Source: an uncultured Gammaproteobacteria bacterium (lineage in GTDB: Bacteria > Patescibacteriota > Microgenomatia > CAZETR01 > Amesbacteraceae). From it: a stretch of DNA of 64,000 nucleotides. Positions 1-39,017 of the stretch are shown piece after piece. Within the stretch, counting starts at the first letter, position 1; the number at the start of each line of letters is the position of its first letter. The position numbers and the translations under genes were made by a program. The DNA is taken from the NCBI GenBank assembly GCA_964518565.1, contig CAZFGX010000001.1:669404-733403 (forward strand), given 5' to 3'. Under the pieces are notes generated by a model, which saw only the letters and a program-made list of their open reading frames with translations, was not told where the DNA came from and did no database searches.

Positions 1-566
1 TTGACGGTGGCATCAAACCCACCTCGGTTTCCACCCAACTCAAACGCAATACGAATCAGTTGCATGGTCTCAAAAGCCACACCAGCATAGTCACAATCCA
101 CATACTGTGTTGAGCGATTACGCGACAAAGGCTTACCGACAACCATCGGATCCTCTTGGACAAAGTCCTCGGGGACCACACCGATCGGATACAACCGAAC
201 CAAGCGACCACCGACATAAATACTGGGCTGCTTAAAATTGGCATCGCGACGAAGATCACTGATGTAGGCAGCAGTTTCCTGCACTGCCACTTCACGAGTC
301 CCCGGCTTGAAAGCCACGACAGGTTCGTTTCCAAACTTGCCCTGCAAAATGCCAACGGCAATATTGTCCGGATCTGTCGGTTCGTACATGTCGAGCAATG
401 CATCGATCTTGATCAAACCTAACAGCCGGCTTACATCACCACTTCCCATGAGCGCCATCATCAAGACATTTTGATCAACACCCAAAGTCTTTGCGATGGA
501 CTTGTCTTGTTGCACTTGCGTCTTGGTCGGCTTCACGATTTTCTTAGCAGTTTTCTTAGGAGCCAT
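1..566 (-). CDS. hypothetical protein, partial (3' end outside window); lysine-rich N-terminus MAPKKTAKK
   Basis: ATG at 566 on the minus strand opens a frame that runs past position 1 with protein-like composition. The track ORF 56..403 is in a different frame and shorter. No recognisable motif. Confidence 0.45.
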   Translation of the reverse strand, partial: MAPKKTAKKIVKPTKTQVQQDKSIAKTLGVDQNVLMMALMGSGDVSRLLGLIKIDALLDMYEPTDPDNIAVGILQGKFGNEPVVAFKPGTREVAVQETAAYISDLRRDANFKQPSIYVGGRLVRLYPIGVVPEDFVQEDPMVVGKPLSRNRSTQYVDCDYAGVAFETMQLIRIAFELGGNRGGFDATV

Positions 567-614
567 AGTAGATACTTCCTTTTTATACTGAATTGAAAAA
601 TTAAAAAACAAAAA

Positions 615-1076
615 CTATTTCGTCGGCCAAGTATAACTTGGACGCATTTCGGCAGCCATATTCAACAAATCCCGCTGGCTGCCTCTGCGTGTACAATACA
701 ACCAAAGATTTGCGATCTTCACAACCTTTGTGTTGCCACCAATGTTGCTAGGATCAGCCTGCATGGCCGTACACAAATCGATAACATCAGCCATACTAAA
801 AGCTTGATTGGCAACATCGGTAAATTGAGTAACCAGATTCTTTCCGACCAATCTGCGCGGATTCATCGAACACATCTGTTCAGCTGCTTCTTGCAATTTG
901 TCGAAAGTGCCACGACGATTTTGGTGCTGAATCAGCTGCAAGGCCTTCCCTTCTTTGGTATCACCAGAAATATTCTCCCAATCAGCAAACTCCAAACAAA
1001 GCAGCATGATCTCGTCCAGATCAAAATTATCAACCAAATACTGTCGTAATTGCGGTGGCGTCTTTCGTTCTGACAT
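615..1076 (-). CDS. small all-helical protein with two tandem death-like/EAD-like repeats
   Basis: 153 aa. Two copies of the pattern L..L...F...E...LC.......I.G.TK....LI....RRG....L, resembling effector-associated/death-like domains. No enzymatic motif. Confidence 0.5.
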   Translation of the reverse strand: MSERKTPPQLRQYLVDNFDLDEIMLLCLEFADWENISGDTKEGKALQLIQHQNRRGTFDKLQEAAEQMCSMNPRRLVGKNLVTQFTDVANQAFSMADVIDLCTAMQADPSNIGGNTKVVKIANLWLYCTRRGSQRDLLNMAAEMRPSYTWPTK

Positions 1077-1301
1077 AAAACCTCCATATCAAACAAAAAA
1101 TGAGTATTTTTCCTCCCGTAGGGAGACGATCCCAACACGAAATAAGCCGCTTAAAATAATGGATGCATTCATCCAATCTCTTAGAGCGACTTCTCATGTC
1201 GGAATAACTCCCTACGAAAATAGCTTTTTAAGGAGCCAGAACACTCTGCCCACTTTAGCATATTGAACTCAAAAATGCAACTATAGGCCTAGTGAATAAC
1301 C

Positions 1302-1342
1302 CAAAAAATGCGCCCTAGGGTGGAAATTCCACCCCAAGGCGC
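1302..1342 (-). terminator. intrinsic terminator for the minus-strand gene ending at 1355
   Basis: Two-tier hairpin GCGCC-cta-GGGTGGA-aat-TCCACCC-caa-GGCGC (1310-1342), followed on the minus strand by a U-run (plus-strand A-run 1303-1308). Confidence 0.5.
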
Positions 1343-1354
1343 AAACATCACAAT

Positions 1355-1639
1355 TTAGCGTAGCGTAATCGTCATGCGACGAGACGTCTTATCCAAGACT
1401 TTATCCAAATTTCCTGTCACTGGCGGTCGCTGACCTGCTGCACAGCAGCATCGCACTCTACCGGTAGAGATCTTGTCTGAATTTTGGCAATTCGGACATG
1501 GTTTGTTCTTCGGCGTCTGATTGCTGCCATTGGGCACATAGGTCAAACCATTACACGTCGGGCACGTTGCCCAGCCACTTCCCTGACATGTGCAAATCGA
1601 AACTGTTGCCTTCACTGGCTTCACGGAACTCTTATTCAT
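1355..1639 (-). CDS. small DnaJ-type (CxxCxGxG-like) zinc-finger protein
   Basis: The track ORF extends to 1801, but its N-terminal 54 aa are not protein-like. An internal ATG at 1639 has AGGAG about 11 nt upstream. Motifs CTCQGSGW, CPTCNG, CPNC and CCC, with a basic tail. Confidence 0.4.
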   Translation of the reverse strand: MNKSSVKPVKATVSICTCQGSGWATCPTCNGLTYVPNGSNQTPKNKPCPNCQNSDKISTGRVRCCCAAGQRPPVTGNLDKVLDKTSRRMTITLR

Positions 1640-1814
1640 ATCTAAACTTACTCCTATCAAAAAACTGTGAATGTACGCTGGGTGTCCTTTGGCAAAAAAT
1701 GCCGCGATTGGCCTCAGTTTTGCTCCTAGCCCCAGTCTGTCAATTATACCCCATAAAAAAAGCCGGAGAAAACCTATCAAGGTTTGCCCCGGCTGACCCA
1801 CTGATATGCAAATA

Positions 1815-2015
1815 CTATTTCACCAACTCCCGTTCATGTCGCACTCGCAAAAATTCCTTATGTAGATCCAAATCAGGCTGGATTTGCTCCCGCCAAACCC
1901 TGTCTACAAAGTCTTTTGCCCGCCGCTGCACAGCTACTTGTTCAGCAAACGACAATTTACGAGTCGTAGATTGGTTAAAAAATTTATCCCACATGTTTTT
2001 CCACCATTGTTCCAT
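1815..2015 (-). CDS. small hypothetical protein (66 aa)
   Basis: ORF overlaps the end of the upstream membrane-protein gene by 32 nt. GGAGG lies adjacent to the start. Weak support. Confidence 0.3.
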   Translation of the reverse strand: MEQWWKNMWDKFFNQSTTRKLSFAEQVAVQRRAKDFVDRVWREQIQPDLDLHKEFLRVRHERELVK

Positions 2016-2373
2016 CCCTCCACCATCCTAAAAACGCTGCCCCTGTTGCCAGAGTCGAAAAACCAAATCCTACTTCCAAGCTCAGCACTACACTTCCCAA
2101 GGCATACGCGGCTGCCAACAATCCACCCAAGATAAAACAGACCAATGCCCAGATGGTCAGCCGATAAGCCACCCCAGTCATAAATACTCGCAAAAACCAG
2201 CCCAGTGCACCTAATGCTATCAAAATAGCCACCGGGGTGACAAAAGCAATCGCCTCAGGCACATATAGCTTGGAAAATCCATTTGTCGCACTCGCCAAAA
2301 ACATTCCAGCGGTAAATGTCACAGTCGCTAACATTCCAAACACGACTCCCGGCCAAGACAATTGTCTTTCCAT
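1984..2373 (-). CDS. integral membrane protein (about 4 TM helices)
   Basis: 129 aa with four hydrophobic helices. Strong SD AAGGAG 7 nt upstream of the ATG at 2373. Confidence 0.6.
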   Translation of the reverse strand: MERQLSWPGVVFGMLATVTFTAGMFLASATNGFSKLYVPEAIAFVTPVAILIALGALGWFLRVFMTGVAYRLTIWALVCFILGGLLAAAYALGSVVLSLEVGFGFSTLATGAAFLGWWRDGTMVEKHVG

Positions 2374-2386
2374 TCGATATCTCCTT

Positions 2387-2806
2387 CTAACGAATCACAT
2401 TGCCCTGAGCATCCAATACCATGGTATAAGTTTTTCCATCATATTGGACAAAAACTCCAGTCCCATCCCAGGACATCATTGTTCCCACAGGCACACACGC
2501 CACATCTTTTGGCAATGCCACCACCGTCTCATTTTCTACCAACACCAACGCCACTTCACAGCCGCGTCGCGTATATAGACTCAGCATTCTGGCACCCAAA
2601 ATGACTACATCTTCGCAGCCTTTTTTACCTACTGGCGTATAGCGTTTACCGTCAAAACAGGCCTGTCCCATTGGCGGAGCTGTTGGCACTGTCGCTGCGG
2701 CTAAATTTCCCACAAGCGCAGCTGGTTTTACCCCTGTCGTAGTGGGCACTGCAGGGTTTGAACAAGCACACAGTATCAAAACCAACCACCAGATAAACCA
2801 TTTCAT
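2387..2806 (-). CDS. secreted/lipoprotein-like protein
   Basis: The internal start MKWFIWWLVLILCACS is a signal peptide with a Cys-containing lipobox-like end. AGGAGG lies 4 nt upstream of the ATG at 2806. The track ORF extends to 2875. Confidence 0.55.
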   Translation of the reverse strand: MKWFIWWLVLILCACSNPAVPTTTGVKPAALVGNLAAATVPTAPPMGQACFDGKRYTPVGKKGCEDVVILGARMLSLYTRRGCEVALVLVENETVVALPKDVACVPVGTMMSWDGTGVFVQYDGKTYTMVLDAQGNVIR

Positions 2807-3032
2807 TTCACCTCCTTTGCATATCAATGTCAAAGTTCTAGACCAATCCTCCACTGCATCAGTGGGGTTGATCAATTTGAGCTAATTATAGGACAATTCT
2901 CACCATTGACGCAAATCAAAAAAAAGCGTTTACTAAATCCCAGCTGTGTTCAAGGAACCGAGGTGAAACTCCCGGACTGTGCCGCAACCGTAAAGTCGGA
3001 AAACTAGCAGCCTTATTATCCCGAGCAGGAAT

Positions 3033-4214
3033 ATGTCGTATCAAACAAAAGAAAATTATCATGTCCCCCAGTTTTGGTTTGAGGCCGAATATGCCAAAGC
3101 CCGTACTATTTTAGATTCCTCTCCACTTCCCGATGCCAAACACTTGATATACGACCACATCACAGATAGTCTCAAGGGTACTCACAATGAATTTTTCCTC
3201 AATTTAGATGGTCAGCGCAGCCCAGTGCTCCCTTTCAAACTCGAAATTCGCGACCAGCGTTTATATGGCTTTGGGGATTGGTATACCGACGCCATAAAAA
3301 CTGAAGAACACCACGGCCAAACCAAAGCTACTTGCCAAAAAATCGAGCAGTTTCTCATCTCTGCCCCAGAAGGCAAACTGGCCTTCTTTGTCAGCCCATC
3401 TGGCCCCTCAGGCATGGAGGATGAACATGGCCAACCAGTTATTTATAAAGATACTGCTATTTATTTTTTTCAGCGTACCTCAACCACCCAAGTCCAATGC
3501 TGGAATGTCTTTACCGATCTATCTCTTTTAGAAAGCGAGCGCCTACTCCAATCGTATGGCATCAAATCCGACACGACAAAAGATTTACCAGATCGCATGG
3601 AGCATGTCATCGCTTCACCAGTATTTCCTTCTTCGGGTATTAGTGGGGTATTACACGATGTTCAGACCCTCCTCAATACCCCGTATATAAAAGGTACTCA
3701 AACATTCGAATATACTCAATGGTTAGTGGATAATCCAGATATTGTCGAGCAGTCTTGGAGCACATCAGAACAAATAAAATCTCTACTTTCTCAATTTGAA
3801 CAACTCATCCAAGCTGCTCCTGACAATATCTTGCTAATGAGCACACTCCAACGGGAACTCCCCACTCTCCTACTCAAAATTTCTGCCGTTGCTCGTGGCA
3901 AAGATGCCGCAAAGGCGGATCTATCACATGAAGCGAGTTATATTAGCTCTTTAGACGGTTGTACGAGTTCAGGCAGCGGTCTGGAAAATATTTCCGGCTA
4001 CCGCGAAACATATATCGATGGCGATAGCTACGTCATGTCTGGTGGCGTGTACCATTACGAAGTCGTTATCAAAACTCCCTGGGGCTACAAACGCTGCCGA
4101 CCACAACCAGTTCTGCGCTGCCCACACACTGGCTGCAACAAAGCCTATTACGGCCAGACGCTGCCTGTAGGCTTTCGTTGTGACTGCCGGCAGATCTTCT
4201 GGGGCATTTGTTAA
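3033..4214 (+). CDS. hypothetical protein with C-terminal Cys-rich (zinc-ribbon-like) tail
   Basis: 393-aa ORF with AGGA upstream. C-terminus CRPQPVLRCPHTGC...CDCRQ. No recognised catalytic motif. Confidence 0.6.
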   Translation: MSYQTKENYHVPQFWFEAEYAKARTILDSSPLPDAKHLIYDHITDSLKGTHNEFFLNLDGQRSPVLPFKLEIRDQRLYGFGDWYTDAIKTEEHHGQTKATCQKIEQFLISAPEGKLAFFVSPSGPSGMEDEHGQPVIYKDTAIYFFQRTSTTQVQCWNVFTDLSLLESERLLQSYGIKSDTTKDLPDRMEHVIASPVFPSSGISGVLHDVQTLLNTPYIKGTQTFEYTQWLVDNPDIVEQSWSTSEQIKSLLSQFEQLIQAAPDNILLMSTLQRELPTLLLKISAVARGKDAAKADLSHEASYISSLDGCTSSGSGLENISGYRETYIDGDSYVMSGGVYHYEVVIKTPWGYKRCRPQPVLRCPHTGCNKAYYGQTLPVGFRCDCRQIFWGIC

Positions 4215-4235
4215 ATAGCAAATTTGTGCTATACT
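4208..4235 (+). promoter_or_regulatory. candidate sigma70-type promoter for secE-nusG-rplK (TTGTTA-16-TATACT)
   Basis: -35-like TTGTTA at 4208-4213 and -10 TATACT at 4230-4235, preceded by TG. Confidence 0.3.
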
Positions 4236-4282
4236 ATTGACAGCGAGCCGAAAGGCTTTTTTTTAATGGTAGAATACAATCT

Positions 4283-4462
4283 ATGAACCCTGTCACGTAC
4301 TTTAAAGAGACCATGTCCGAACTGCGCCAAGTCCGCTGGCCTACCCGCCAAACGACCATCCAACTAACCAGTATCGTCATTGTTGTCTCCTTAATTGTTG
4401 CCTTGTACGTCGGTGCTCTAGATTTTAGCTTTACCAAATTACTCTCAGAACTGGTCAAATAA
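4283..4462 (+). CDS. secE: preprotein translocase subunit SecE (59 aa; below the ORF-track size cutoff)
   Basis: MNPVTYFKETMSELRQVRWPTRQTTIQLTSIVIVVSLIVALYVGALDFSFTKLL is a typical SecE sequence with a single TM helix. It lies immediately upstream of nusG. Confidence 0.8.
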   Translation: MNPVTYFKETMSELRQVRWPTRQTTIQLTSIVIVVSLIVALYVGALDFSFTKLLSELVK

Positions 4463-4479
4463 ACTGCTAAAATAAACAT

Positions 4480-5103
4480 ATGCAAGACGAAAATCCAAAT
4501 AAATCTATCAACGAACGAGGTCTTGGTGGCAAAGCCATCCCTGGCCATATCGTCGTCAACAGTGACGTCGCACTCACCGAAAAAGCCAAATGGTACGTCG
4601 TCCACACCTACTCTGGCCACGAAGCTCGTGTCGCCGAAACTCTTCGCCAACGTCTCGCCACCCTTGGCCAGACCGACAAGGTCGCCGAACTCCTCATCCC
4701 TACTCAAGATCAAATTCATATCAAATCTGGTAAAAAATACTCCGTCAAAGAAAAGATTTTCCCAGGATATCTACTGATCAAAATGATCGTCGATGACGAA
4801 TCCTGGCTGGTCGTTCGTACCACCCAAGGTATTACTGGCTTCGTCGGCGTAGGCAACAAGCCTACCCCACTCTCAGTCAAAGAAGTCGAAGCCATCATGC
4901 AATTTGCTCAGATCGGTGCACCAAAGCACAAGACCAACTTCACCACTGGCGAAGCCGTCAAAATTACCGATGGTCCATTTGCCGATTTCCTGGGCTCCAT
5001 CGAATCTATCGACGAAGCTCACGGCAAACTCCGCGTCCTGGTCTCTATCTTCGGCCGGGAAACGCCAGTCGAACTCGACTTTTTACAAGTAAAGAAGATA
5101 TAA
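4480..5103 (+). CDS. nusG: transcription antiterminator NusG (with N-terminal extension)
   Basis: NGN-domain sequence WYVVHTYSGHE and a KOW region. Canonical secE-nusG-rplK context. Confidence 0.9.
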   Translation: MQDENPNKSINERGLGGKAIPGHIVVNSDVALTEKAKWYVVHTYSGHEARVAETLRQRLATLGQTDKVAELLIPTQDQIHIKSGKKYSVKEKIFPGYLLIKMIVDDESWLVVRTTQGITGFVGVGNKPTPLSVKEVEAIMQFAQIGAPKHKTNFTTGEAVKITDGPFADFLGSIESIDEAHGKLRVLVSIFGRETPVELDFLQVKKI

Positions 5104-5115
5104 TCCCTACACTAT

Positions 5116-5541
5116 ATGGCAGCCAAAAAAATTAAAGTCATTTTAAAGCTCAATCTCCCAGCTGGTGGCGCAACTCCTGCACCACCTGTCGGTCCAGCTC
5201 TCGGTCAGCACGGTATTCCCATCATGGAATTCGTCAAACAATACAATGACCGCACCAAAGACCAAAAAGGTGACATTATCCCTGCTGTTATCACCGTCTA
5301 CGAAGATCGCAGCTTTACCTTTATCACCAAACTTCCCCCAGTCTCAGCCATGATCAAAAAGGCCTTAAACCTTGAATCTGCTTCCAAAAAACCCGGCCGT
5401 GAATCAGCCGGCAATATCACCAAAGATCAAATCCGCGAAATCGCCCAACGCAAACTCGTAGATCTCAATACTGACAATATCGAATCCGCCGTCAACTCCG
5501 TCGCCGGCACCGCCCGCTCCATGGGTATCAAAGTGATCTAA
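5116..5541 (+). CDS. rplK: 50S ribosomal protein L11
   Basis: [20 protein letters not shown] is the L11 hallmark. Confidence 0.95.
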
Positions 5542-6095
5542 TGGACATTTACCTGCTTAGCAAAAACTCCGGCAAGATCGCAGCCGCCAACTCTGTCTTC
5601 AACCAATACCACATCACGGTAAAAAGTATTTCCGAGGAATTCCCTGAAATTCAAGCCAATTCTAGTGCAGAGATCGCCAAATTTACCGTTCTAGAAGCGG
5701 TCCAAAAACTCCAGCTCCCCGTCATTCGTGAAGATCATAGTTTGTATATTCATGCCCTCGGTATCCCCGGGCCATATACGGCATTTATAGAAAAGACTCT
5801 GCCAGCAACCAAGCTCCTAGAAATCCTCGCCCTGCATCCAGATCGTACTGGCCATTTCGAAATCTCCGCCGCCTATGCCGATCCATCTGGCACACTCAAA
5901 GAATATTCCTATACAGTTCCCATCCATTTCAAAATCCAAGAAGTAGTCCCAGACCCTCGTGGAGGTTGGAGTGGACTCATGTGTCTAGAAGGCGAAACAC
6001 GAGCATTTACTGAATATCCAGAAGAAGACCGCCTATCTGTCTGGAACAAAAACTATATAGAAATAGCTAAATACCTCACTCAGGCTCAAGTATAG
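5541..6095 (+). CDS. Ham1/RdgB-family non-canonical purine NTP pyrophosphatase-like protein
   Basis: NSGKI...EDHSLYIHALGIPGPYTAF parallels Ham1 ATGNPGK...DDSGL.VDAL.G.PG.YSAR. A C-terminal EEDRLSVWNKN region resembles the EEKN..SHRG segment. Confidence 0.65.
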   Translation: MDIYLLSKNSGKIAAANSVFNQYHITVKSISEEFPEIQANSSAEIAKFTVLEAVQKLQLPVIREDHSLYIHALGIPGPYTAFIEKTLPATKLLEILALHPDRTGHFEISAAYADPSGTLKEYSYTVPIHFKIQEVVPDPRGGWSGLMCLEGETRAFTEYPEEDRLSVWNKNYIEIAKYLTQAQV

Positions 6096-6125
6096 TATAA
6101 TTAGCCTCCAGTCGAGGCTAAACAC

Positions 6126-6154
6126 TTGACAAATACAATACTATAGGATATAAT
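6126..6154 (+). promoter_or_regulatory. consensus sigma70 promoter TTGACA-17-TATAAT
   Basis: TTGACA at 6126-6131 and TATAAT at 6149-6154 with an exact 17-nt spacer. It lies upstream of a 176-nt structured leader before the gene at 6331. Confidence 0.5.
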
Positions 6155-6330
6155 CCTATTTAGGATAAGTTAGTGAGATCCAACATCTCGTTGACCATCT
6201 CACTCCTTGTTCAGCTCTTTAAAAATCGAGCGTGGACAAAATACTTCTGGACTCTCTTCCAGCGGCCATCTACGGCTGCTTAACAAATAATCTAAACAAT
6301 ATTCAAGTTCGTTTTTCAGGAGGTTAAGTT

Positions 6331-7029
6331 ATGCAAGCTAAGAAACAATCTAATCCATTCGCTATTGTTTTCATTGCCCTGCCAGTAGTAGTGGTAGTAG
6401 CACTGATAGTGTTCGGCATGTCCGACTCACCTTCTATCAGCCTCTCCACTGGAAACATTGCAGACGCAGCGCCAGAAAAAATCAATGTTTCATCGGTCAG
6501 CATGGACATGCCATCTATCGACGAACAATCACTAGAAGCTATCGTCCAAGTAGTAGAACCCGATGGTACATTGACGCTGCCTGCTGCAGATCCCGAAGGA
6601 TTTCAGCATGCCATGGAACGCCGTGGCATTTCAGCTGCTGGCTGTCCAGCCAAAACGAAGTATGCAGAACAGGCCGTGAATCAAGGGTATTTCATGATTA
6701 TGTCATGCTATGACCATGTTCGTGATAATCCCGAAGGCGCCTTTTTCTCACCCACCGCTGGAACAATCATGGTAATTGCCAACGCACCCCAACCTGTTGG
6801 GGCAATCGTTGTCATTTTCCAAGCAAACGTCCAGGGTGGAAATCTAATCGGCTTCGGCCGACCGTTAACCGTCTTAGTCAAAGGTGTAAATGTACACCGA
6901 GCTCGACTTTCTTCTTGTGCTAGCACACAGTTCTTTCCGCTAACCCAAGTGAAATTCCAGCCGGAATACGAACCACCCCCACTAGGCGGAGGCACCTGCC
7001 TCAAAAATAATAACGTCCATTCGTTTTAG
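6331..7029 (+). CDS. membrane-anchored hypothetical protein
   Basis: AGGAGG SD. N-terminal TM helix IVFIALPVVVVVALIVFG, followed by an extracytoplasmic domain. Confidence 0.6.
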   Translation: MQAKKQSNPFAIVFIALPVVVVVALIVFGMSDSPSISLSTGNIADAAPEKINVSSVSMDMPSIDEQSLEAIVQVVEPDGTLTLPAADPEGFQHAMERRGISAAGCPAKTKYAEQAVNQGYFMIMSCYDHVRDNPEGAFFSPTAGTIMVIANAPQPVGAIVVIFQANVQGGNLIGFGRPLTVLVKGVNVHRARLSSCASTQFFPLTQVKFQPEYEPPPLGGGTCLKNNNVHSF

Positions 7030-7044
7030 TAGCCACGCTCGTAG

Positions 7045-7082
7045 CCACCAGCCGACTCTTAGTTGGCTGGTGGTCTTTTTTG
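7045..7082 (+). terminator. rho-independent terminator
   Basis: Perfect 9-bp stem CCACCAGCC/GGCTGGTGG with an 11-nt loop, followed by TCTTTTTTG. Confidence 0.6.
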
Positions 7083-7119
7083 AAAAATTTCAATTATTTA
7101 CCAAAATATCGTATAATTT

Positions 7120-7677
7120 ATGGAGAACAAAATTGACATGATACCAAAATCTGAAGTTACAGCTATGCGCTCTGACGCTCCGAAGGCAGTACAACCAACA
7201 GAACTGGATCAACAAAACGAATTACTTAGAGATATTGATATGCGAAAAATTGCAGAAGCAACCACAAACACGTCTATTACCCAAGAAATGGTTCAAAAAC
7301 TGGTCGATTCAGAACCAGGGAGTTTGCGTAACCATTTATTTGGAATTAATGGCCAAAATCGAATGCGAAACCTCTGGCAAATATTGCAAATGAGCCTCTT
7401 GAGCGATGAAGATAAACAAAAAATGGTCGCGGGTGTAATAACTCAAATTGGGCTAGCCACTAAAGAAGCCTTAGACGAAAATGGATCAACAAAAGTTTTT
7501 AAACACGACATTACCCCAAGTGAATTACAAGTTCTAAAAACAGAAATGAATCCAGTTGTGATGAGTGAAGCCATGGAAATTCTAGACCATCCTGAAAAAA
7601 TTGAATCAACCGAAATCACTCCTGCACACATTGCAGCCATTGCAATGTTAAAAATAAACTCCACTACGAAAGAGTAA
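7120..7677 (+). CDS. hypothetical protein (alternative start 7138)
   Basis: 185-aa ORF of unknown function. TATAAT at 7112-7117 suggests the in-frame ATG at 7138 may be the true start. Confidence 0.55.
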   Translation: MENKIDMIPKSEVTAMRSDAPKAVQPTELDQQNELLRDIDMRKIAEATTNTSITQEMVQKLVDSEPGSLRNHLFGINGQNRMRNLWQILQMSLLSDEDKQKMVAGVITQIGLATKEALDENGSTKVFKHDITPSELQVLKTEMNPVVMSEAMEILDHPEKIESTEITPAHIAAIAMLKINSTTKE

Positions 7678-8023
7678 CATTCTCATAGTGGTTGATTCGT
7701 AACACGTCACCTTCTCTACCAAGCACAATCGCCACCATATCTATCCGGCAGGCCACTTCATCTCCTTTCAAATACACCTGTGCCATCCGTTTGACCTTGG
7801 TATATTTCCCTTTAGTAAACATCTCCTCAGGCCTTCCGTACCCTTCACCAATTTTTGTCTTCACTTCCACAAAAACCAATATTTTTTTATCCAGAAATAT
7901 CAGATCTATTTCCCCAAAACGAGTAGAAAAATTCCTCTGCACCAGTTCATAACCTTTTTTCATTAAATATTGCTCAGCTATCCCCTCACCCACTTGTCCA
8001 GTCGCTCGATTTTGCTGCTTCAT
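7664..8023 (-). CDS. yraN: YraN-family (UPF0102) endonuclease-like protein
   Basis: GEGIAEQYL...GYELVQRN...GEIDLIF......VFVEVKTK matches the UPF0102 pattern. The track ORF extends to 8071. Confidence 0.7.
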   Translation of the reverse strand: MKQQNRATGQVGEGIAEQYLMKKGYELVQRNFSTRFGEIDLIFLDKKILVFVEVKTKIGEGYGRPEEMFTKGKYTKVKRMAQVYLKGDEVACRIDMVAIVLGREGDVLRINHYENVTLS

Positions 8024-8052
8024 ACCGTATTGTACGAGTATAATCCCCCACA

Positions 8053-8772
8053 ATGGAACGCAATAGACCAATAAATCTGGATCACTATGTCGACGTCCTC
8101 GATGGCTGGCGATACAACAACGATTTTTTCTTAGCGCCTGAAGATATAAATCAGGCCGAAACCTATCTCCAAAATCAATATTCTCGTCTAGACACCCACA
8201 TGCTCAAAGAAGTGGCCAGTCGCACAATATTAGATCAGGACAGTCGACTGAAACCCCAAATTGTCCTAGCCCGTCAATTCTTACGTCAATTTTTTGGTGA
8301 TCTACCAGAACTGCAACCACTCACAAAATCCGGCGGCGGCATCGTTTTATACGGATCGCTGCAATATAACGATCCCAGAAACTTCGATGCAGATATTTTA
8401 ATCGTAAATCCAGGCCAAAAAGCTATTCGGGACTTTTCCTCACCACAATATCTGCAAATCGAACGCGAATTTATCTCCAAGTGGAGTCGCTACGGCAGCG
8501 AACCCCATATCGACGAACTCATGCTCAAATCTGCCCCATCCCAACTCGCCAGCCTACAAAAAACCGAAGGCGGCTGGTTCAACAATCTATCAATTCACAT
8601 TACCAAAGTGGTCACTGGACTTCCTCTCTGGCCAATTCCTACCAAATGGCATAACAATTGTTTCACTCAGGCCAAACAGATCTTAGAATCACACCCGCTC
8701 GCAGCTGCTCTAGCCAATGTCAGCATAGCCGAGACGCTCGATATCCGTCGCCAGCGCCAAAAACAAATCTAA
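8053..8772 (+). CDS. nucleotidyltransferase-fold (Pol-beta superfamily) domain protein
   Basis: GGGIVLYGSLQYNDPRNFDADILIV gives a hG[GS]-x9-DxD signature. Its partner and function are unknown. Confidence 0.55.
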   Translation: MERNRPINLDHYVDVLDGWRYNNDFFLAPEDINQAETYLQNQYSRLDTHMLKEVASRTILDQDSRLKPQIVLARQFLRQFFGDLPELQPLTKSGGGIVLYGSLQYNDPRNFDADILIVNPGQKAIRDFSSPQYLQIEREFISKWSRYGSEPHIDELMLKSAPSQLASLQKTEGGWFNNLSIHITKVVTGLPLWPIPTKWHNNCFTQAKQILESHPLAAALANVSIAETLDIRRQRQKQI

Positions 8773-10286
8773 ATCATTTGCCGATACTGCAACGCTTCAG
8801 CCAAATGACGAGCCAGTATCTGCTCAGAATCAGCCAAATCAGCAATAGTTCTCGCTACTTTAATAATCCGAAAATAGCTTCTAGCTGACAAATCAAATCG
8901 TTCTACCGCCAATCTCATCACCCCTTCCCCTTCAGGATCCAGCTTACAATATCGTTTTACCTGTTTATTTTTCATTTGCGAATTTGTATACATTCCATCA
9001 GATTCGAGCCTATGTTGCTGGATATTTCTACATTGGACAACCTGTTTTCTGATCTGTCCAGAATTAATCTGCTCCACTCCAGCCGCACCAGTCAGCTTCT
9101 CCACCTCCACCACACTTACATTAATATGCAAATCAATCCGGTCCAGTATTGGACCAGACAATCGGGCTCTATACTTAGCAATTTGCTTAGGAGAACAAAT
9201 GCACGCTCGCTTAGGATGCCCTAAATAGCCACACGGGCATGGATTCACAGCTGCCAAAAGCGTAAAACTAGCCGGATAACTCACATGAGCCGTAGCTCGG
9301 ACTATGCCTACAACCCCATCTTCCATTGGTTGCCTCAATGATTCCAAGACCGATCTGCCAAATTCTGGCATCTCATCCAAAAATAATACTCCCAAGTGAG
9401 CCAAGCTTACCTCACCAGGCATAGGATTGGATCCACCACCTATCATGCCTGCCGCGGATACTCCATGATGTGGACTACGATATGGCCGTCTTCGCACCAC
9501 AGATTCTCCCGGCTGCAGCAATCCAGATACTGAATATATTCGTGTTACCTCTAATGCTTCAGAGACTGAAAGTGGAGGCAAAATTCCCGGCATCGCTCGT
9601 GCCAACATCGTCTTTCCTGTACCCGGCGGCCCCCACAACAGCAAGTTGTGCCCACCTGCTGCCGCAATAGTCAGTGCCCGTTTGGCTTGTTCCTGACCAA
9701 TCACCTCTGCCAAATCAAATTCTATATGTGCATCTTCCACTAGCTCTTCTACTGCCAGACTTCGTAGCTGTTCCACAGATTTCACACCATTCAAATGATC
9801 TACCAGCTCCCCTAATTGTCGTATAGGATATACCGCGACACCTTTTACAATCGTTGCCTCATTCGCAGATTCAATGGGCACAAAAATAGCTCTCGACTTG
9901 GCAAACAAAGCTACCAACAGCACTCCCTTGGTAGCTCGGACTCCACCGTCTAAGCCTAATTCACCATAAAATATTCTCTCCTCAATACTCGCCACCGGTA
10001 TCTGGCCACTAGCTGCCAAGATGCCCACCGCTATCGCCAAATCATAAGCTCCGCCGTCCTTGGGCAAATCAGCGGGTGCTAGGTTCACAGTAATTTTCTT
10101 TGGTGGAAAGTCTAGACCAGAATTCCCGATCGCCGTCTTCACTCGCTCTCGAGCTTCTTCTACTGCCTTACCTGCCAATCCCACAATAGTAAATCCTGGA
10201 AATCCTTGATCTGCCACATCTACCTCCACCACAACCCCCACACTCTCCAGTCCCACATGTGCCACACTGTGGACTTTTACCAACAT
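8769..10286 (-). CDS. comM: Mg-chelatase-like AAA+ ATPase ComM/YifB
   Basis: N-terminal Lon-like domain, Walker A GPPGTGKT, Walker B LFLDE, and a C-terminal YifB-type region. Confidence 0.9.
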   Translation of the reverse strand: MLVKVHSVAHVGLESVGVVVEVDVADQGFPGFTIVGLAGKAVEEARERVKTAIGNSGLDFPPKKITVNLAPADLPKDGGAYDLAIAVGILAASGQIPVASIEERIFYGELGLDGGVRATKGVLLVALFAKSRAIFVPIESANEATIVKGVAVYPIRQLGELVDHLNGVKSVEQLRSLAVEELVEDAHIEFDLAEVIGQEQAKRALTIAAAGGHNLLLWGPPGTGKTMLARAMPGILPPLSVSEALEVTRIYSVSGLLQPGESVVRRRPYRSPHHGVSAAGMIGGGSNPMPGEVSLAHLGVLFLDEMPEFGRSVLESLRQPMEDGVVGIVRATAHVSYPASFTLLAAVNPCPCGYLGHPKRACICSPKQIAKYRARLSGPILDRIDLHINVSVVEVEKLTGAAGVEQINSGQIRKQVVQCRNIQQHRLESDGMYTNSQMKNKQVKRYCKLDPEGEGVMRLAVERFDLSARSYFRIIKVARTIADLADSEQILARHLAEALQYRQMI

Positions 10287-10310
10287 AATTTATGCTAACA
10301 CAACACACCT

Positions 10311-11102
10311 CTAAATCACCCAATACTTTCCGTCTCGTTCTTCAATTTGTCCCAACAATTGTAACTGCATCAATTCATAACTTAGTACATCAATTGGCTT
10401 TTCAACTAATCGACACAATTCATCAATTGTTAATGGTTCATTTTGTAACAAACTATATAAATCAGTAGATTTAATGTATCGATATTTTTTCATTTGCGGC
10501 ATCCAAAGTTTTGCCTGTCCGGTCGCAATCAAAGAATTGGTTCCCAAAGAAACAGCACTAGTAATCGGACCCGGCACAGCCCAAATTTCCTTGCCCATTT
10601 TTTTGGCAATTTCTACTGTTCCCAATGACCCAGATTTGACCCCTGCTTCGATGACATATACTCGCTGACAAAGTGCTGCCACAATTCGGTTGCGCAAAGG
10701 AAAAGTCCACAGTGCTCCTTTCTGTTTTTTCCACTCCGAAAAGATCAGTCCATCGGCTGCCAAAATAGCTCTTCCCAAATCATCGATTTGTTCATCAATT
10801 CCCCACCCCAAAACTGCAATAGTTTTTCCGCCCACGGTCAGACAAATCTCATGTGCGGTTCGATCCACTCCGTACATAAATCCGGACACAATTGTCCACC
10901 CGTCAGCGACCAACTGTGGCACCAAAATTTCCACCGCTCGTCTGCCGTATTGGGTCATCTGCCTGCTGCCAATAACTGCAGCCATTCGGGGTGGCATTTC
11001 ACCTTGCCAATTACCCAAATACCATAGCTCTTTCACAATCGGTTTCACATCTGCCAACCACCTCTCCAACACCCCCTGATCTAGTTGCCCAGCAGTTAGC
11101 AT
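10311..11102 (-). CDS. dprA: DNA processing protein DprA/Smf
   Basis: AVIGSRQMTQYGRR ... SGFMYGVDRTAH ... LGWGID is the DprA Rossmann core, with a C-terminal winged-helix tail. Confidence 0.9.
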   Translation of the reverse strand: MLTAGQLDQGVLERWLADVKPIVKELWYLGNWQGEMPPRMAAVIGSRQMTQYGRRAVEILVPQLVADGWTIVSGFMYGVDRTAHEICLTVGGKTIAVLGWGIDEQIDDLGRAILAADGLIFSEWKKQKGALWTFPLRNRIVAALCQRVYVIEAGVKSGSLGTVEIAKKMGKEIWAVPGPITSAVSLGTNSLIATGQAKLWMPQMKKYRYIKSTDLYSLLQNEPLTIDELCRLVEKPIDVLSYELMQLQLLGQIEERDGKYWVI

Positions 11103-11165
11103 ATATCAATATTAATTATATTGACTTTCTATGTGAAGTATGGGCACAATAGATACATAGTTAGA

Positions 11166-11220
11166 ACTTGTAAAAACTGGTAAAAACAGCTTCAAAAAAT
11201 TGTAAAAAGTTGTCAAAACC
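11166..11220 (+). repeat. phased array of T(T)GTAAAAA / TTGTCAAAA motifs upstream of the HTH-TM-Cache gene
   Basis: Copies start at 11168, 11178, 11200 and 11210 (about 10-11 bp phasing). The same motif, reverse-complemented, forms a longer array at 38097-38170. Confidence 0.6.
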
Positions 11221-11234
11221 AGCCCTGCCAAAAA

Positions 11235-13070
11235 ATGCCCAAAACATTCACCGTCAAAGAAGTCGCTGATGCCTTGGGTTTTTCGACCAATACCGTCTAC
11301 AAATACCTAGACGAAGGCAAGATAAAAGCTACCCGTTTAGGGTCAGAAGGTCGCTTCAAAATCCCAGCTTCTGAAGTAGAAAGATTACTAGGAAAACCCA
11401 AGACGGTTCAGGTCATAAATCAACCCGTCCAAACAGTCACAGTCGTAGAAGAAACTGCCGAAAGTTTGATCCGCGAAAAGCCCGCCTCATCCCCAGAACT
11501 TTTTGATTGGCTCCTCTCCCTAACTGCAGTGTTTACAGGCATCTCCCAACTGACCAGTCCAATCAAAAATTTTGCCCTAGCTTCAGATCAATTTCGCACT
11601 CTGTTTTCTATCGCAAATATTGACCTAATTTTGGCAGGTGGATCACTGTTTGCCCTGGACATGTTTTCCCCAAAAAAAACTCGCATATTTTCACTGATCG
11701 CACGCATTCCTCTTGCTGCCACTTTTGGCTATTTAAGCTACCTCCATTTCGTCACCAAAGACATGTGGCAAGCCAGTTATTTTTTTGTACTCAGTCTATT
11801 TACGTTTGCGTCATGTGTATGGCCGGAAAAACACTTTGAAACAAAGTGTTCTCTATTCATGTTTTCTCTTATTAGCATCACGGCAATCGCCTATAGTCGC
11901 AACCCTCAACCGTTTATTTTTTCCGACCCACGCTATGAAATTTCCAACAACCCCAATGGCTTTGTTATGGGAGTGCTTGCCGTCAGCGCCATCATCACCG
12001 CCATTCTGATTTTTGCCAAAAATCGCAGTCGAGTCCTATACCCCATCTTTACTACTTTGACCGGTTGCATCTTTTTGGTTTTGACCATCAGCTATATCGC
12101 TACTGGCGACTTAGCCAAAACCATTATTTGTTTATTCACTGGCTGCTTTGCCCTGATACTTCCACTCACCAACCAAATCGAGTCTTTCTCTCACTATACC
12201 AAACGCCAACTTGCAATTGGATTCATTTGGATCGTTGCTGCCATCGCTCTGGGAGTTGTCGGGGTTCAAGTCACCAAGGCTACCACTGGTTCTCTCGCTA
12301 TCAAAAATGCAAAAGACAAAACCGACTCTACAGCCAAAGTAGCCGACCGCAGTATCTCTGATGCTTCACTGAATGTGATTCGTGCTGCCTCAGATGACCG
12401 ACTCGATTCTCTTCCTATATCCGAAGCCTCTGAAACGACCCTACTGGAAATGTCCAAAAGTATCTATTTCACATCTTCACTTACTCGTCGAGTCTTTTTT
12501 GCCGACCAAGATGGGAACACGTTTGGTGTTTATCCCCCAATCAACTCCAATATCCGTTCAGTAGCTACGCGTGACTTCTTCCAACAAACCAAATCAACTC
12601 GCAAAACCGTAGTCTCAGATGTAATCCAACCCCAAGTAGCCCTTCCAGCCACCGTTTATATCTCCACTCCAATCATTTCTGAAGCCAATGAATTTCGCGG
12701 CACGATCACCATAGCTATTGATCCACAACTACTTCAGGATCGATTGACACTCATGACTCAAGCCGAAAACAGTCGGATTCTCATCACAGATGTCAAAGGT
12801 GATTATTTATTTGGCCAAGAGGTTCTCTCAAAAGAATCAGCCAAAAATCAAAACTCAATTGTATTCGATAATTCAAAAAATCTAGCCGTGCAAACCAAGT
12901 CAAAAGCCGAAGCTCTAGGCTGGAATATTACTCTAGTTCAACCATATGACGAGGTATTCAAAGAATCCACAGCCATCTCATCTTTCATCTTTTTTGTGAG
13001 CGCAGTCCTTGGTATTGGCGCTCTGCTTATAAACACCCACTTACCTCACACACAAAAAGACCATGAATAA
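11235..13070 (+). CDS. membrane protein with an N-terminal excisionase/MerR-type HTH, about nine TM helices, a Cache-like extracytoplasmic domain and a final TM helix
   Basis: FTVKEVADALGFSTNTVYKYLDEGKIKATRLGSEGRFKIPASEVERLL is an HTH_17-like domain. Multiple hydrophobic helices follow. FFADQDGNTFGVYPP...RDFF...VVSDVIQP...TVYISTPII...GTITIAIDPQLL is a Cache-like region. The stop overlaps the giant gene start by 8 nt. Confidence 0.75.
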   Translation: MPKTFTVKEVADALGFSTNTVYKYLDEGKIKATRLGSEGRFKIPASEVERLLGKPKTVQVINQPVQTVTVVEETAESLIREKPASSPELFDWLLSLTAVFTGISQLTSPIKNFALASDQFRTLFSIANIDLILAGGSLFALDMFSPKKTRIFSLIARIPLAATFGYLSYLHFVTKDMWQASYFFVLSLFTFASCVWPEKHFETKCSLFMFSLISITAIAYSRNPQPFIFSDPRYEISNNPNGFVMGVLAVSAIITAILIFAKNRSRVLYPIFTTLTGCIFLVLTISYIATGDLAKTIICLFTGCFALILPLTNQIESFSHYTKRQLAIGFIWIVAAIALGVVGVQVTKATTGSLAIKNAKDKTDSTAKVADRSISDASLNVIRAASDDRLDSLPISEASETTLLEMSKSIYFTSSLTRRVFFADQDGNTFGVYPPINSNIRSVATRDFFQQTKSTRKTVVSDVIQPQVALPATVYISTPIISEANEFRGTITIAIDPQLLQDRLTLMTQAENSRILITDVKGDYLFGQEVLSKESAKNQNSIVFDNSKNLAVQTKSKAEALGWNITLVQPYDEVFKESTAISSFIFFVSAVLGIGALLINTHLPHTQKDHE

Positions 13071-16000
13071 ACGCGGTATTTCACCCATCATCATCTTGCT
13101 CGTCATTGGCCTTGCTACTACTGTCACCTTTGGCACAGCCACGCTTGTTCGCCATTATTCAAACCCGTTCGCCAAAGCCAATCTCCAGCTCAATCTCAAA
13201 AACAGTCCAGACGTAATTGATGCCAGCAAACTAGCTGGAGCTGTACTCCAAAGCCCAGTCGTAGGCATTACCCAATTGGAATCTGGCAAATACACCGCGT
13301 TCCAAATCCAAGATGCCGATATCCAAAATATAGACAACACCCCAACGCTATCTCTCAGTGCCCGACTACTTTCACTTTCCAACGACCCAATATCTCTGAG
13401 TGGCCCAAACAAAATCGACTACATCGAACTCAAAAATCATAAAACTTCCAATGCGAAGGTTGTGATCCCTGGTATCGTCCAAGTCAAAACCAAATCCGGC
13501 GACATCATAAACGTTCTCCTTTCCCAGGCCAAAATTCGCAACGGCCAAATCATCGATGCCTTTTATGGCCAGGTCGTAGATTCAGCCCATTTAATCGCTG
13601 GTGTAGGTGAAATCTCCGGCAATCTTACCTACCCAGCTGTCGAAATCGGTGGCCAACCTGCCAATTCAGGCATTTCGTCACTAGTCAGACAAGCCATGCG
13701 GGTTGTACCTTCACTTTCACTAGATTCCCGACCAATTTCAATCTCCCAAACCCAAGGTACAGTTGTACTGGGTGCAACTACGGACATGCTCCAAAGTCTA
13801 AATCTAGATTTCTCTGCTCCATACGATGCTGTCTTCGATGAAAAGTCTGGCACTTGGACTTTGCCTGGTCAATCTGGCGTATCAATTTCTACCATTGCCA
13901 CAGACCGCCAAGTAGCCAAGGCAATTGAAGACAAAATTAGTTCAGGTGATTTAGTGCTACCTACAGCCACAAATGGCATTACCGAAATCAAATCAGCCAA
14001 CGACAAGCTTACAGTGACCACTAACGAATCGCTAGTTACTCTAAGACTATCACTCGTAAACAGTATCGACTCTGATAGTATTATTGACGGTTCCATCACC
14101 AATTCTGATATCTATTCCGGAGCAAATATTGGCGATAGTAAGCTAGATCAAATCAAATCAGCCAACAAAGTGGCTGGCTCAGCCATCCAACTCTCTACCA
14201 CTGGTGGACTAGAAAATAATTCTGGACTATCCCTACTTACCTCATGTTCAATTAACCAAGTTCTCAAATGGGATGGGTCGGACTGGATTTGTGCTACCCA
14301 ATCTGGTGGTGGTGGCAGTAGTATAGATATTCAAGAAAACGACAGCACAATTACCAGTGCCGCAGCTTTTCTGGATTTTCTGGGTTCAGACTTCACCGTC
14401 ACCAACTCTCCGAGCGGTGAAGCAAATGTAGCTATCGATTACACAAATTCAGCCATCACTCGCTCCAATCAAAATGAAACTATCTCCGGTACTTGGACCT
14501 TTTCTAGCACACCCACCATCACCAATCTTCCCAATTCAGCTTTAGCCAACTCTGGTATTACTGTCACCGCGGGTACAGGCCTATCTGGCGGCGGAGCAGT
14601 CTCCCTCGGCGGTTCAGTCACCTTGTCTTCTACCCTCGGCACAGCCATCGATTCCTCTGAAATCACTAACGACACAATAGTCAATGCCGACATCAATTCA
14701 GCAGCCGCAATAGACTTCACAAAACTCGCCAGTCTGACTGCTGGGTATATCTTGCTCGGAAACTCTTCAAACGTAGTTACCGCCACCGCTCTTAGTGGCG
14801 ATATCACCATAGATAGTTCCGGTGTCACTACCATCGGCGCGGACAAAGTCGCCCTGGGTACCGATACTACCGGCAACTACGTTGCTGGCGCCACCACAAA
14901 TGGCGGTCTGGCACTCACTGGCACCGAAGCTGGCACACTCGGCCTCATCACTTCTTGTAGCGACAACCAAGTGCTCAAATATACAGCGGCCGGCGGTTGG
15001 GCATGTGCCAACGATACCACTGGTGGTGGATCAGGAAATTCATTCGAAACTATTTCCACTGCCTCTGGCACTTCCCCAGTCGCTGATTCCTCTACAGATA
15101 CGTTGTCGCTTACTGCTGGTTCAGGAATCACAATTGTAGGCGATGCCTCAAACGACAGTATCGCTATTGCGGCAACGCTAGGCAACACTATCGATTCTTC
15201 AGAAATCACCAATGACACCATCGTCAATGCCGATATCAACTCTGCTGCCGCCATCGACTTCTCAAAGTTAGGTGCACTCACAGCTGGGAACATTCTTTTG
15301 GGTAACAGTTCAAACGTCGCCACCTCCACTGCCATGTCAGGTGATATTACGATCGACAGTTCTGGCGTCACCACCATCGGCGCAGACAAAGTGGCTCTGG
15401 CCACCGACACTACTGGCAACTATGTCGCCACTGTCACTGGCAATTCTCAAATCTCAGTGTCTGGATCTGGTTCAGAAAATGCTGGCGTTTCTCTTTCCAT
15501 CGCCGCTGATAGTATTGGTGATTCACAGCTCGCCTTCAATACCGGCCAAAACCTGACCACTTCCTCCACGCCAACATTTAGCGCGCTAACACTAAACGGC
15601 AATCTGACTCTAGCCAATGCAGAAACCTTATCCAATGGTACCGACGGTCAAATTACTTTTGGTCGAAATGATGCTGGCACAGTCACACTGACTGCCGCTG
15701 ACAATGACTCCACCGCAGCACTGACTATCTTGCCCGGCGGCGCCGCAGGATTGACTCTCGGCGGATCGTCTACCACGGCTATCACCATAACCACCGATGG
15801 CACTGGTGACAGTGAAGTCGTTCTACCTGCAAATTCCGTAGGTAATTCAGAATTGGTAAATTCTAGTATTACCATCAATTCCGCTGGCATCCTCTCTGGT
15901 GGCGCCTCAGTATCTCTCGGTGGAAATATCACCCTCACCGCCACAGAAGCAGACACGCTCAACACCGTTGCGGGGCGTGGTGCATCTACTGCCACTGCAT

Positions 16001-32864: not shown

Positions 32865-33531
32865 ATACTAATCTAAAAATCTTTTCAAACAAATCATCAC
32901 TTTTAGCCATCATGCACAATACGTAGGGTCTCTTCGGTCGGTAGACCAAACGGCAATCTCCAACGTTATTTTTTGATTTGAATCGAAACATGGAAACATC
33001 TGCTTCAGACACGTGTTGAACATGAGATTTTAAAATTTTATTTGAATTTTCCAAATCTAAATAAGTAGATAAATACAAATTTCTCAAAACAGATGAAAAA
33101 TTCTTAGGACTCACGACCAAATCAGAATCGTTTTGACTCTGAGGAAAATCTAAATAATCAAAAATAGGCTGATGAGAATTAAGGCTTTCTAATTCATTCA
33201 AAAGCGGAATCTGAGTCGTAGCAAACATGGGCACCTTTTCGTTTACCCCCACATAGACACCTGAGGGTAAATATTCAAAATATATACCCATGGCAGTATT
33301 CGCCACAATTTGCTCCAGTTGAGTTCGTAAGGAGACAAAGTTTATAAGAACATCATTTGGCTGGTTTATAAATACTCTCGGTGATAAAAACCGATAGGAT
33401 AAAACACTTGCAGATTGGAGCGATGAAGCCTGAACGGGATTATAGACGCGACGAAATATGATAACAAATAAAACAATATTTGTGACACATGATGCACAGA
33501 AAAAAACCCAAAATGAATGTTTTTTTGTCAT
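32842..33531 (-). CDS. degenerate paralog of the class A beta-lactamase-fold proteins (lacks SxxK and SDN)
   Basis: Shares the YFEYLPSGV..G.NE, SPKN.SSVLR.LY.S.YLD and RPYVLCMM blocks with its two neighbours, but the catalytic motifs are missing. Confidence 0.55.
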   Translation of the reverse strand: MTKKHSFWVFFCASCVTNIVLFVIIFRRVYNPVQASSLQSASVLSYRFLSPRVFINQPNDVLINFVSLRTQLEQIVANTAMGIYFEYLPSGVYVGVNEKVPMFATTQIPLLNELESLNSHQPIFDYLDFPQSQNDSDLVVSPKNFSSVLRNLYLSTYLDLENSNKILKSHVQHVSEADVSMFRFKSKNNVGDCRLVYRPKRPYVLCMMAKSDDLFEKIFRLVYEYVDAY

Positions 33532-34469: not shown

Positions 34470-34471
34470 AA

Positions 34472-35401: not shown

Positions 35402-35426
35402 GAATATATGCAGTATACTCCAACCC

Positions 35427-38117: not shown

Positions 38118-38170
38118 ATTTTAGCCTTGTTTTTACAAGTTTTTACAACTTATTACAAGTGTTTACAATC
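38097..38170. repeat. phased array (6-7 copies, about 10.5 bp period) of TTTTTACAAG, the reverse complement of CTTGTAAAAA
   Basis: Copies start at 38098, 38108, 38130, 38140, 38151 and 38162. The array overlaps the methyltransferase start codon and matches the array at 11166-11220. Confidence 0.65.
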
Positions 38171-38218
38171 AATAAAATGCTTGCAATTTAGATAAAAATA
38201 GTGCTAAGGTAATTTTAG

Positions 38219-38962: not shown

Positions 38963-39017
38963 ACCAAAACAAAGGCAATTCACTTTTTAAATCGAATCTT
39001 GTATAATCCTCCAAGCC

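Follow-up and report, generated by a model that had tools for sequence, protein, structure and literature searches.

A stand-alone protein of two EAD7 domains and its gene cluster in an Amesbacteraceae genome

The tandem-EAD7 gene and its product

The gene considered here lies at positions 615 to 1,076 of a 64,000-nucleotide stretch of contig CAZFGX010000001.1 (assembly GCA_964518565.1, positions 669,404 to 733,403), which is referred to hereafter as the window. The assembly is deposited as an uncultured Gammaproteobacteria bacterium and is placed by GTDB in the Amesbacteraceae (Patescibacteriota). The gene codes for a protein of 153 amino acids (aa), P0001, made of two effector-associated domains (EADs) of the EAD7 family. 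It is the first of a series of co-directional genes that continues beyond position 1 of the window. The features of the gene and of its immediate upstream region are as follows.

615..1076, minus strand: tandem-EAD7 gene (P0001), ATG to TAG open reading frame (ORF) of 153 aa, first in its transcription unit
876..1049, minus strand: EAD7 repeat 1, residues 10-67, best Pfam stretch, profile positions 1-59 of 62
627..833, minus strand: EAD7 repeat 2, approximately residues 82-150, second Pfam stretch and the more divergent copy
1081..1085, minus strand: Shine-Dalgarno motif GGAGG with a 4-nt spacer to the ATG at 1076, as read from the sequence
1309..1343, minus strand: intrinsic terminator, a 16-bp stem with 10 G-C pairs followed by a T-run
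1355..1639 (to 1801 with a GTG start), minus strand: short ORF with many CxxC pairs, CTCQGSGWATCPTCNG...CPNCQ, similar to a zinc finger of the DnaJ type

In a Pfam hmmscan, the protein matched EAD7 (PF19960) in two independent stretches at an E-value of 1.4e-25, scoring 89.3 bits where the cutoff is 32. The same family is precomputed for P0001 in the protein database. The score lies above the gathering score of the profile, and the protein is small, non-enzymatic and stand-alone. Its two halves are 39% identical to each other over 51 aa (E 6e-7), and its length accommodates two domains of about 65 aa with their linkers and leaves no space for a further domain. Neither PADLOC nor NCBIfam returned anything for it, it contains no transmembrane (TM) or hydrophobic segment and no Walker A motif or P-loop, and PDB sequences gave no match to it at E <= 10. 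The initial annotation of the window, made from the letters alone, had proposed a protein of two tandem EAD-like domains and nothing else, and the twofold EAD7 match bears this out. The identification of both domains as EAD7 by profile comparison is solid and can be considered close to certain. The protein is presumably all-alpha-helical, as this is how the EAD7 family is described. Death, CARD, DED and PYD gave no match at E <= 1 in hmmscan. In view of the published profile links of EAD7 to EAD6 and EAD1 and, weakly, to bDLD1, Pyrin and DED (p-values below), the label "death-like" is fair as an analogy or as a distant relationship.

P0001 has in common with the EAD7 domains of unrelated metagenome contigs the pattern F..(D/E)(I/L)..LC..L..D..N(I/L)(S/G)G.TK..K...L......R.G....L......P. 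Together with the profile match and the similarity of the two halves, this is far beyond chance. A chance resemblance, or a small helical helix-turn-helix (HTH) regulator misread as an EAD, could draw on the small size and the helical character of the protein only. It is opposed by an EAD7 score 57 bits over the curated Pfam cutoff in two stretches and by the conservation of the motif. In addition, no second Pfam family, HTH and other regulator families included, was found in the protein at E <= 1. The hmmscan result refutes such a misreading, whose remaining probability is negligible; an ordinary HTH regulator was also the initial annotation's example of an unrelated fold that would have refuted its proposal.

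The gene is genuine. An identical protein is encoded on four contigs, each from a separate sample and sequencing run, and in one NCBI genome. On the coding strand, the sequence 5' of the start codon reads GGAGGTTTTATG, Shine-Dalgarno motif included. The terminator at 1343..1309 is by far the strongest of 8 terminator-like sites, where 3.4 were expected. It closes the preceding zinc-finger ORF and is separated from the EAD7 gene by 232 nt, so that a new transcription unit begins with the EAD7 gene. The zinc-finger ORF at 1355..1639 was called by one gene caller (94 aa, contig L002) and not by another (L001).

EADs were defined as small non-catalytic domains of which one copy resides on a core component (VMAP, iSTAND, Ubl or GAP1) and others on effector or signalling proteins (PMC7159879). 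The effector-side copies are often encoded in an adjacent gene (Kaur et al. 2020, PMC7159879). They were proposed to be homotypic coupling adaptors, like Death, CARD and DED, and EAD7, an all-alpha domain related to EAD1 and EAD6, was counted among those that "primarily recruit other effectors" (PMC7159879). EAD7 was first described in vWA-MoxR-VMAP or iSTAND ternary conflict systems, and EAD systems were reported to be enriched in multicellular bacteria with large genomes. A follow-up study of 2021 added EAD7 on STAND-FGS and TRADD-N proteins (PMC8195603). Its supplementary HHpred p-values for EAD7 are 9.4e-8 against EAD6, 4.3e-7 against EAD1, 2.3e-4 against bDLD1, 9.4e-4 against Pyrin and 1.1e-3 against DED (PMC8195603). 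The published architectures comprise EAD7+TIR+FGS and LRR+AP-GTPase+COR+EAD7. Among the published neighbourhoods are a solo EAD7 near an EAD7+TRADD-N+TM protein (Anaerolineae SG8_19) and an EAD5+EAD7-only protein beside EAD8+iSTAND2-MoxR (Chloroflexi). The architecture EAD7+EAD7 does not occur in the searchable supplementary tables of the EAD surveys.

A motif scan of JGI metagenomes yielded six loci in which EAD7 is fused to CHAT (549 aa), to TIR (297 aa), to PNP_UDP_1 (430 aa) or to unassigned regions. Repeat 1 of P0001 is the more canonical copy and shares 41-42% identity with those EAD7 domains of these unrelated contigs that are linked to CHAT and PNPase. All known contexts of the family to which the domains of the 153-aa protein belong are of the conflict type. 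One comparator contig (L022, 1-5490) looks like a classical EAD7-coupled locus: FtsH (AAA + M41) is followed in a row by a gene of 131 aa, a protein of 218 aa that ends in EAD7, an EAD7+TIR protein and an MBL-fold hydrolase.

The co-directional cluster and the family of its second protein

The genes beyond position 1 were read from a 16.7-kb Logan contig (L001/L019), which matches window 5534..1 with 100% identity over its first 5534 nt and adds 10.5 kb past window position 1. All cluster genes are co-directional with the tandem-EAD7 gene. They are separated by intergenic gaps of 3-59 nt and most are preceded by GGAGG, which indicates co-expression or co-transcription. In their order after the tandem-EAD7 gene they are the following.

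1..566, minus strand (188 of 247 codons in the window; L019 4969-5712): PB (P0002), gene 2 of the operon, 247 aa when complete, starting 48 nt after the EAD7 stop codon with no terminator between
192..500, minus strand: N-terminal module of PB, approximately residues 23-125, motif AFKPGTREVAV, duplicated in three off-window proteins, one of which has a C-terminal EAD7
Off-window after PB, same strand: solo EAD7 of 78 aa, two genes downstream of P0001 (Pfam EAD7 E 4.8e-10)
Off-window after the 78-aa gene, same strand: PB-like protein of 219 aa (PB-family hidden Markov model (HMM) E 7.5e-6)
Off-window after the 219-aa gene, same strand: marginally PB-like protein of 130 aa (PB-family HMM E 8.6e-3)
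Off-window after the 130-aa gene, same strand: protein of 224 aa with a PB-like N-terminus (HMM E 7.6e-11) and a C-terminal EAD7 (E 5.2e-13)
L019 8182-10361 together with its two paralogues, directly after the 224-aa gene, same strand: protein of 305 aa with four N-terminal TM segments
L019 8182-10361, after the 305-aa gene, same strand: soluble proteins of 223 and 191 aa, paralogues of the C-terminal domain of the 305-aa protein, 35% identical to each other
Off-window after the 191-aa gene, same strand: orphan of 283 aa
Off-window after the 283-aa orphan, same strand: GH57 and glycosyltransferase
Off-window after GH57 and glycosyltransferase, same strand: orphan of 87 aa
Off-window after the 87-aa orphan, same strand: protein of 125 aa whose C-terminus resembles EAD7 (hhalign E 5.7e-5, probability 66%)
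Off-window after the 125-aa gene, same strand: TM protein of 70 aa
L019 14378-15208 and 15402-16008, same strand: proteins of 276 aa and at least 268 aa (the second also given as at least 202 aa) with hydrophobic N-termini

The other EAD copies near P0001 are the solo domain of 78 aa, the C-terminal domain of the 224-aa protein and the EAD7-like end of the 125-aa protein, which is probably a divergent EAD7 carrier to judge by profile alignment; such neighbouring copies are what the EAD principle calls for. The C-terminus of the 219-aa protein and the 87-aa protein were tried as further EAD-like candidates and rejected (hhalign probability below 1% for each). The closest local copy to repeat 2 is the 78-aa solo EAD7, at 30% identity, and BLASTP of residues 82-150 gave an E-value of 3e-6. 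A word-indexed homologue search with the tandem-EAD7 protein matched the protein itself only, and when the four local EAD7 domains were aligned and used as the query, the 78-aa solo EAD7 was the only match. The proteins of 305, 223 and 191 aa had no database match, and they may be the effectors of the cluster; PB itself may be another candidate for the damaging component. The 276-aa protein and its neighbour are probably secreted, and they look paralogous by eye when their sequences are read.

The initial annotation had pointed to an ORF with a lysine-rich N-terminus at 1-566 and had supposed that the other parts of a defence system lie off-window. The ORF is real and represents the first 188 of the 247 codons of PB. 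Partners do lie off-window, in the form of the solo EAD7, the PB-like-EAD7 fusion and the probable fourth EAD7 protein. The STAND NTPases, peptidases or nucleases that were to be looked for upstream of position 1 did not appear in the 10.5 kb inspected. Because no such NTPase, peptidase or nuclease was found in this extension or, by the scans described below, in the window, an NTPase-centred defence system at this locus is something that we can only infer.

The Pfam scan covered six ORFs at window 1-4214 and ten extension proteins, PADLOC and NCBIfam covered the cluster proteins, and the rest of the 64-kb window was covered by a scan with a local EAD7 HMM and by a Walker A search of ORFs of at least 120 aa. 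The DNA seen amounts to about 75 kb of a genome of approximately 1 Mb. The local HMM found no further EAD7 copy in the window, and no Walker A motif was found in the extension proteins. Pfam, PADLOC, NCBIfam and PHROGs gave nothing further of meaning among the scanned cluster proteins, and no MoxR, vWA, VMAP or iSTAND component was detected in the cluster. By these scans, no EAD fused to a core component (VMAP, iSTAND/STAND, GAP1, Ubl or TRADD-N) was found in the approximately 75 kb, and the only EAD7 fusion of the cluster is that to the PB-like module in the 224-aa protein. The P-loop proteins of the window look like housekeeping proteins by motif, size and gene order: they are a 505-aa protein with GPPGTGKT and F1-ATPase-like subunits. 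Among such window assignments, only that of MreB is backed by comparison (synteny).

PB begins with a lysine-rich tail, after which comes a domain that belongs to a large and uncharacterised family. PB resembles the 224-aa protein in BLASTP (E 7e-9), and the duplication of the AFKPGTREVAV module is a physical link of PB to the EAD7 network. When 1.84 billion representatives were searched in full by HMMER, a profile built from three sequences collected 586 clusters of the family at E <= 1e-3 and 376 at E <= 1e-10, with a typical length of about 300 aa. A Pfam domain covering the PB core was found in none of 68 sampled members, the family has no Pfam, PHROG or NCBIfam model, and its profile returned only noise from PDB sequences. 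The AlphaFold2 model of PB reached a predicted local distance difference test score (pLDDT) of 88.5 with a 68-sequence alignment (37 with 3 sequences) and had no fold match in PDB or BFVD. In one member (P0051, 574 aa), the PB core is followed by an EAD9, and a second member matches HNH weakly. The region of P0051 that is C-terminal to EAD9 looks beta-helix- or bactofilin-like by eye. On its contig (JGI 3300071358), pairs of similar-sized orphan genes follow (244/244 aa and 257/261 aa), reminiscent of the cluster described here.

Relatives of PB were found in a Patescibacteria metagenome-assembled genome (MAG; 45% identity), in an Aenigmatarchaeota MAG, on three IMG/VR contigs of 52-58 kb and in a huge phage of 595 kb. 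On the viral-type contigs, a lysozyme or SleB-type hydrolase lies 5' of PB, which is followed by a zinc-ribbon protein of about 420 aa and a vWA protein (phrog_7371). The partner protein measures approximately 340-450 aa; it contains a zinc ribbon of the form CxxH...CxxC and, at its C-terminus, the motif "VGAGA..Q...DDP". This arrangement looks like an uncharacterised three-gene viral module, and the PB-partner pair is also present in genomes of the candidate phyla radiation (CPR) and of DPANN.

PB-partner coordinates: L003 2441-3745, L004 1730-3770, L008 10642-12680, L009 10619-12476, L010 10656-12714, L011 11632-12648

A diverged member of the partner's "420-aa family" was also sought in the present cluster and was rejected by an HMM search, which found no match in the window and the extension. 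The window segment 42047-48432 is syntenic with positions 8376-21032 of L011, from the genome with the closest relative of PB, and shares with it mreB, a PEGA-like gene, ndk, an M16 peptidase gene and argS; the MreB proteins are 61% identical. On L011, mreB and the PEGA-like gene are separated by PB, by a gene of 81 aa and by a member of the "420 family" of 338 aa, where the window has a gap of 40 nt. Therefore PB either relocated to the EAD7 cluster or has been retained there alone, and three truncated or diverged paralogues of it have arisen. The association of PB with EAD7 looks like a lineage-specific innovation.

The closest relatives of PB (43-50% identity) are chromosomal, apparently single-copy, and located beside mreB, purA, nusA or argS. 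Such positions would suit a housekeeping scaffold, in which EAD7 has been co-opted for PB-based complexes, for example of the envelope or the cytoskeleton, and not for immunity. The surroundings speak for it as well: the cluster adjoins secE-nusG-rplK on one side, it continues into the GH57, the glycosyltransferase and the secreted or TM orphans, and none of its scanned proteins matched a defence family. Its G+C content (GC) is not atypical either, being equal to that of the surroundings (0.44-0.47 throughout); horizontal acquisition of the cluster, which was considered, received no signal from composition. On the other hand, every characterised or nearest EAD7 context is conflict-type (CHAT, TIR, PNPase, STAND or TRADD-N), the expansion of paralogues and their fast divergence are typical of conflict loci, and the link between PB and EAD7 is absent from related genomes. 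Overall, a housekeeping scaffold seems improbable.

A possible role in docking EAD7-bearing partners

We estimate at roughly 60% the probability that the 153-aa protein is a cytoplasmic, non-catalytic and bivalent EAD7 adaptor that docks to, or links, the EAD7-tagged partners of its operon. The protein has two EAD7 heads and nothing else, and its only possible action is therefore docking to EAD7-bearing proteins. Following the EAD principle, EAD7 modules would bind copies of themselves. The tandem protein could in this way cross-link two EAD7 partners, or it could nucleate an oligomer of EAD7 or lengthen an existing one. It would probably pair with the 78-aa solo EAD7, the 224-aa PB-like-EAD7 protein and probably the 125-aa protein, and the 224-aa fusion would wire the network to PB and its paralogues. 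The homotypic binding, the role as a hub or in effector recruitment and the conflict or immunity purpose are suggested by analogy with the family literature. The nearest foreign EAD7 domains are found on CHAT, TIR and PNP_UDP_1 effectors, which matches the description of EAD7 as a domain that "primarily recruits effectors" (Kaur et al. 2020). The proposal has precedents in the published solo EAD7 and EAD5+EAD7-only genes, and in the member of the PB family that is fused to EAD9.

Several observations weigh against the bivalent adaptor. In the alignment, the identity among the local EAD7 copies is no more than 16-30%, while that between local and foreign copies is 24-42%; neighbouring EADs are thus not each other's closest relatives here, contrary to the published trend. 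The copies are either old or fast-evolving, and their pairing may be specific and not promiscuous. No STAND, MoxR or GTPase core, no vWA, no peptidase, no nuclease and no TIR was found in the 64-kb window, which beyond position 4214 was searched by the EAD7 HMM and for Walker A, or in the 10.5-kb extension. EAD7 was absent from the neighbourhood of PB at the five relatives examined elsewhere, and the link between PB and EAD7 is therefore so far unique to this genome. To our knowledge, EAD-EAD binding has never been shown experimentally for EAD7, and we know of no EAD that has been tested biochemically.

A protein of adaptor domains without effector could also work in the opposite sense. As a decoy or threshold-setter, an EAD7-only protein would cap EAD7-EAD7 contacts or compete with them and so hold the system off; even an origin from a mobile element, as a factor directed against defence, is conceivable. 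Tandem-DED FLIPs, CARD-only proteins and Pyrin-only proteins are analogues of such a decoy. The composition of the protein fits this role, and so does the divergence of its heads, repeat 1 being canonical and repeat 2 not. The gene is the first, and presumably the most highly translated, of the operon, and both viral contigs and a huge phage carry relatives of PB. With the present queries, however, no EAD7 was found in the 2.9 million viral contigs of IMG/VR or in 50,697 GenBank phage records. The GC of the locus is that of its surroundings, and sequence alone cannot separate inhibition from bridging. We hold the decoy to be unlikely.

The bivalent adaptor can also be imagined in an EAD7 network without any NTPase. 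In this more specific and rather doubtful version, the PB-like modules would serve as guards or decoys, responding either to a PB homologue of a phage or to a disturbance of the host's own PB. EAD7 oligomerisation would then be set off by the tandem-EAD7 protein in answer to the sensed event, as a death-domain-style switch without a STAND or MoxR motor. PB would have left the mreB slot, lost its partner of about 340-420 aa and expanded to four paralogues, and EAD7 would have been grafted onto a truncated one.

Compared with the EAD7 systems of the literature (Kaur, Burroughs, Iyer and Aravind, eLife 2020/2021), the cluster has in common the match to the same profile, the small non-catalytic domain and the clustering of EAD7 genes. 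It differs from the published loci by the absence of an NTPase core or known effector nearby in the DNA seen, by a partner that is PB-like and not among the known effectors, and by the distant relationship of its neighbouring copies. It also probably belongs to a reduced genome of Patescibacteria type and not to a multicellular bacterium, to judge by a contig of approximately 1 Mb, the PB relatives in Patescibacteria MAGs, the MreB identity and synteny with L011 and the ORF of 5399 aa described below. The vWA-MoxR-VMAP/iSTAND systems likewise contain EAD7, whereas the adjacent MoxR AAA+ and vWA genes that accompany it there were not detected in the present cluster. The published EAD-only genes of SG8_19 and of the Chloroflexi are similarly adaptor-only and stand beside EAD proteins, but theirs is a locus with a core (TRADD-N and iSTAND2-MoxR), while none was found in the DNA seen here. 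With FADD, ASC, c-FLIP/v-FLIP and the CARD-only and Pyrin-only proteins, the tandem-EAD7 protein shares the logic of small helical homotypic modules, paired on one chain without an enzyme, that bridge or block assemblies; this is an analogy and not an established membership.

As a Pfam match, the tandem-EAD7 protein is routine. What is unusual is its EAD7+EAD7-only architecture, its PB-like partners and the lack of a visible NTPase. A 153-aa EAD7+EAD7 protein beside three small EAD7 partners is about the simplest natural object in which EAD7 binding, bridging or polymerisation could be tested, and EADs are proposed as the bacterial counterparts of the Death, CARD and DED adaptors. Should the rest of the genome lack a classical NTPase core, a cluster from a genome of approximately 1 Mb that is wired to a family shared with viruses would extend the range of EAD adaptors.

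Other features of the window

Between the cluster and secE, an orphan of 393 aa is encoded at 3033..4214 on the plus strand. Its C-terminus is rich in Cys (CPHTGC...CDC), and neither Pfam nor PADLOC gave a match. A single ORF of 5399 aa occupies 13063..29262 on the plus strand; it begins with a TM or signal segment, and a search of PDB sequences with its first 2500 aa gave no relative. Between 55.5 and 64 kb, the minus strand has several ORFs that overlap in different frames and whose N-termini seem to be of low complexity, with much V, P, A and E. The GC skew is strongly negative (about -0.2) across 1..64000, regardless of gene orientation. The GC drops from 0.45-0.51 to 0.36-0.41 between approximately 28 and 56 kb, in a stretch that was read, from gene order and N-terminal sequences, as coding for membrane proteins, ribosomal proteins L10 and L7/L12 and the ATP synthase operon.

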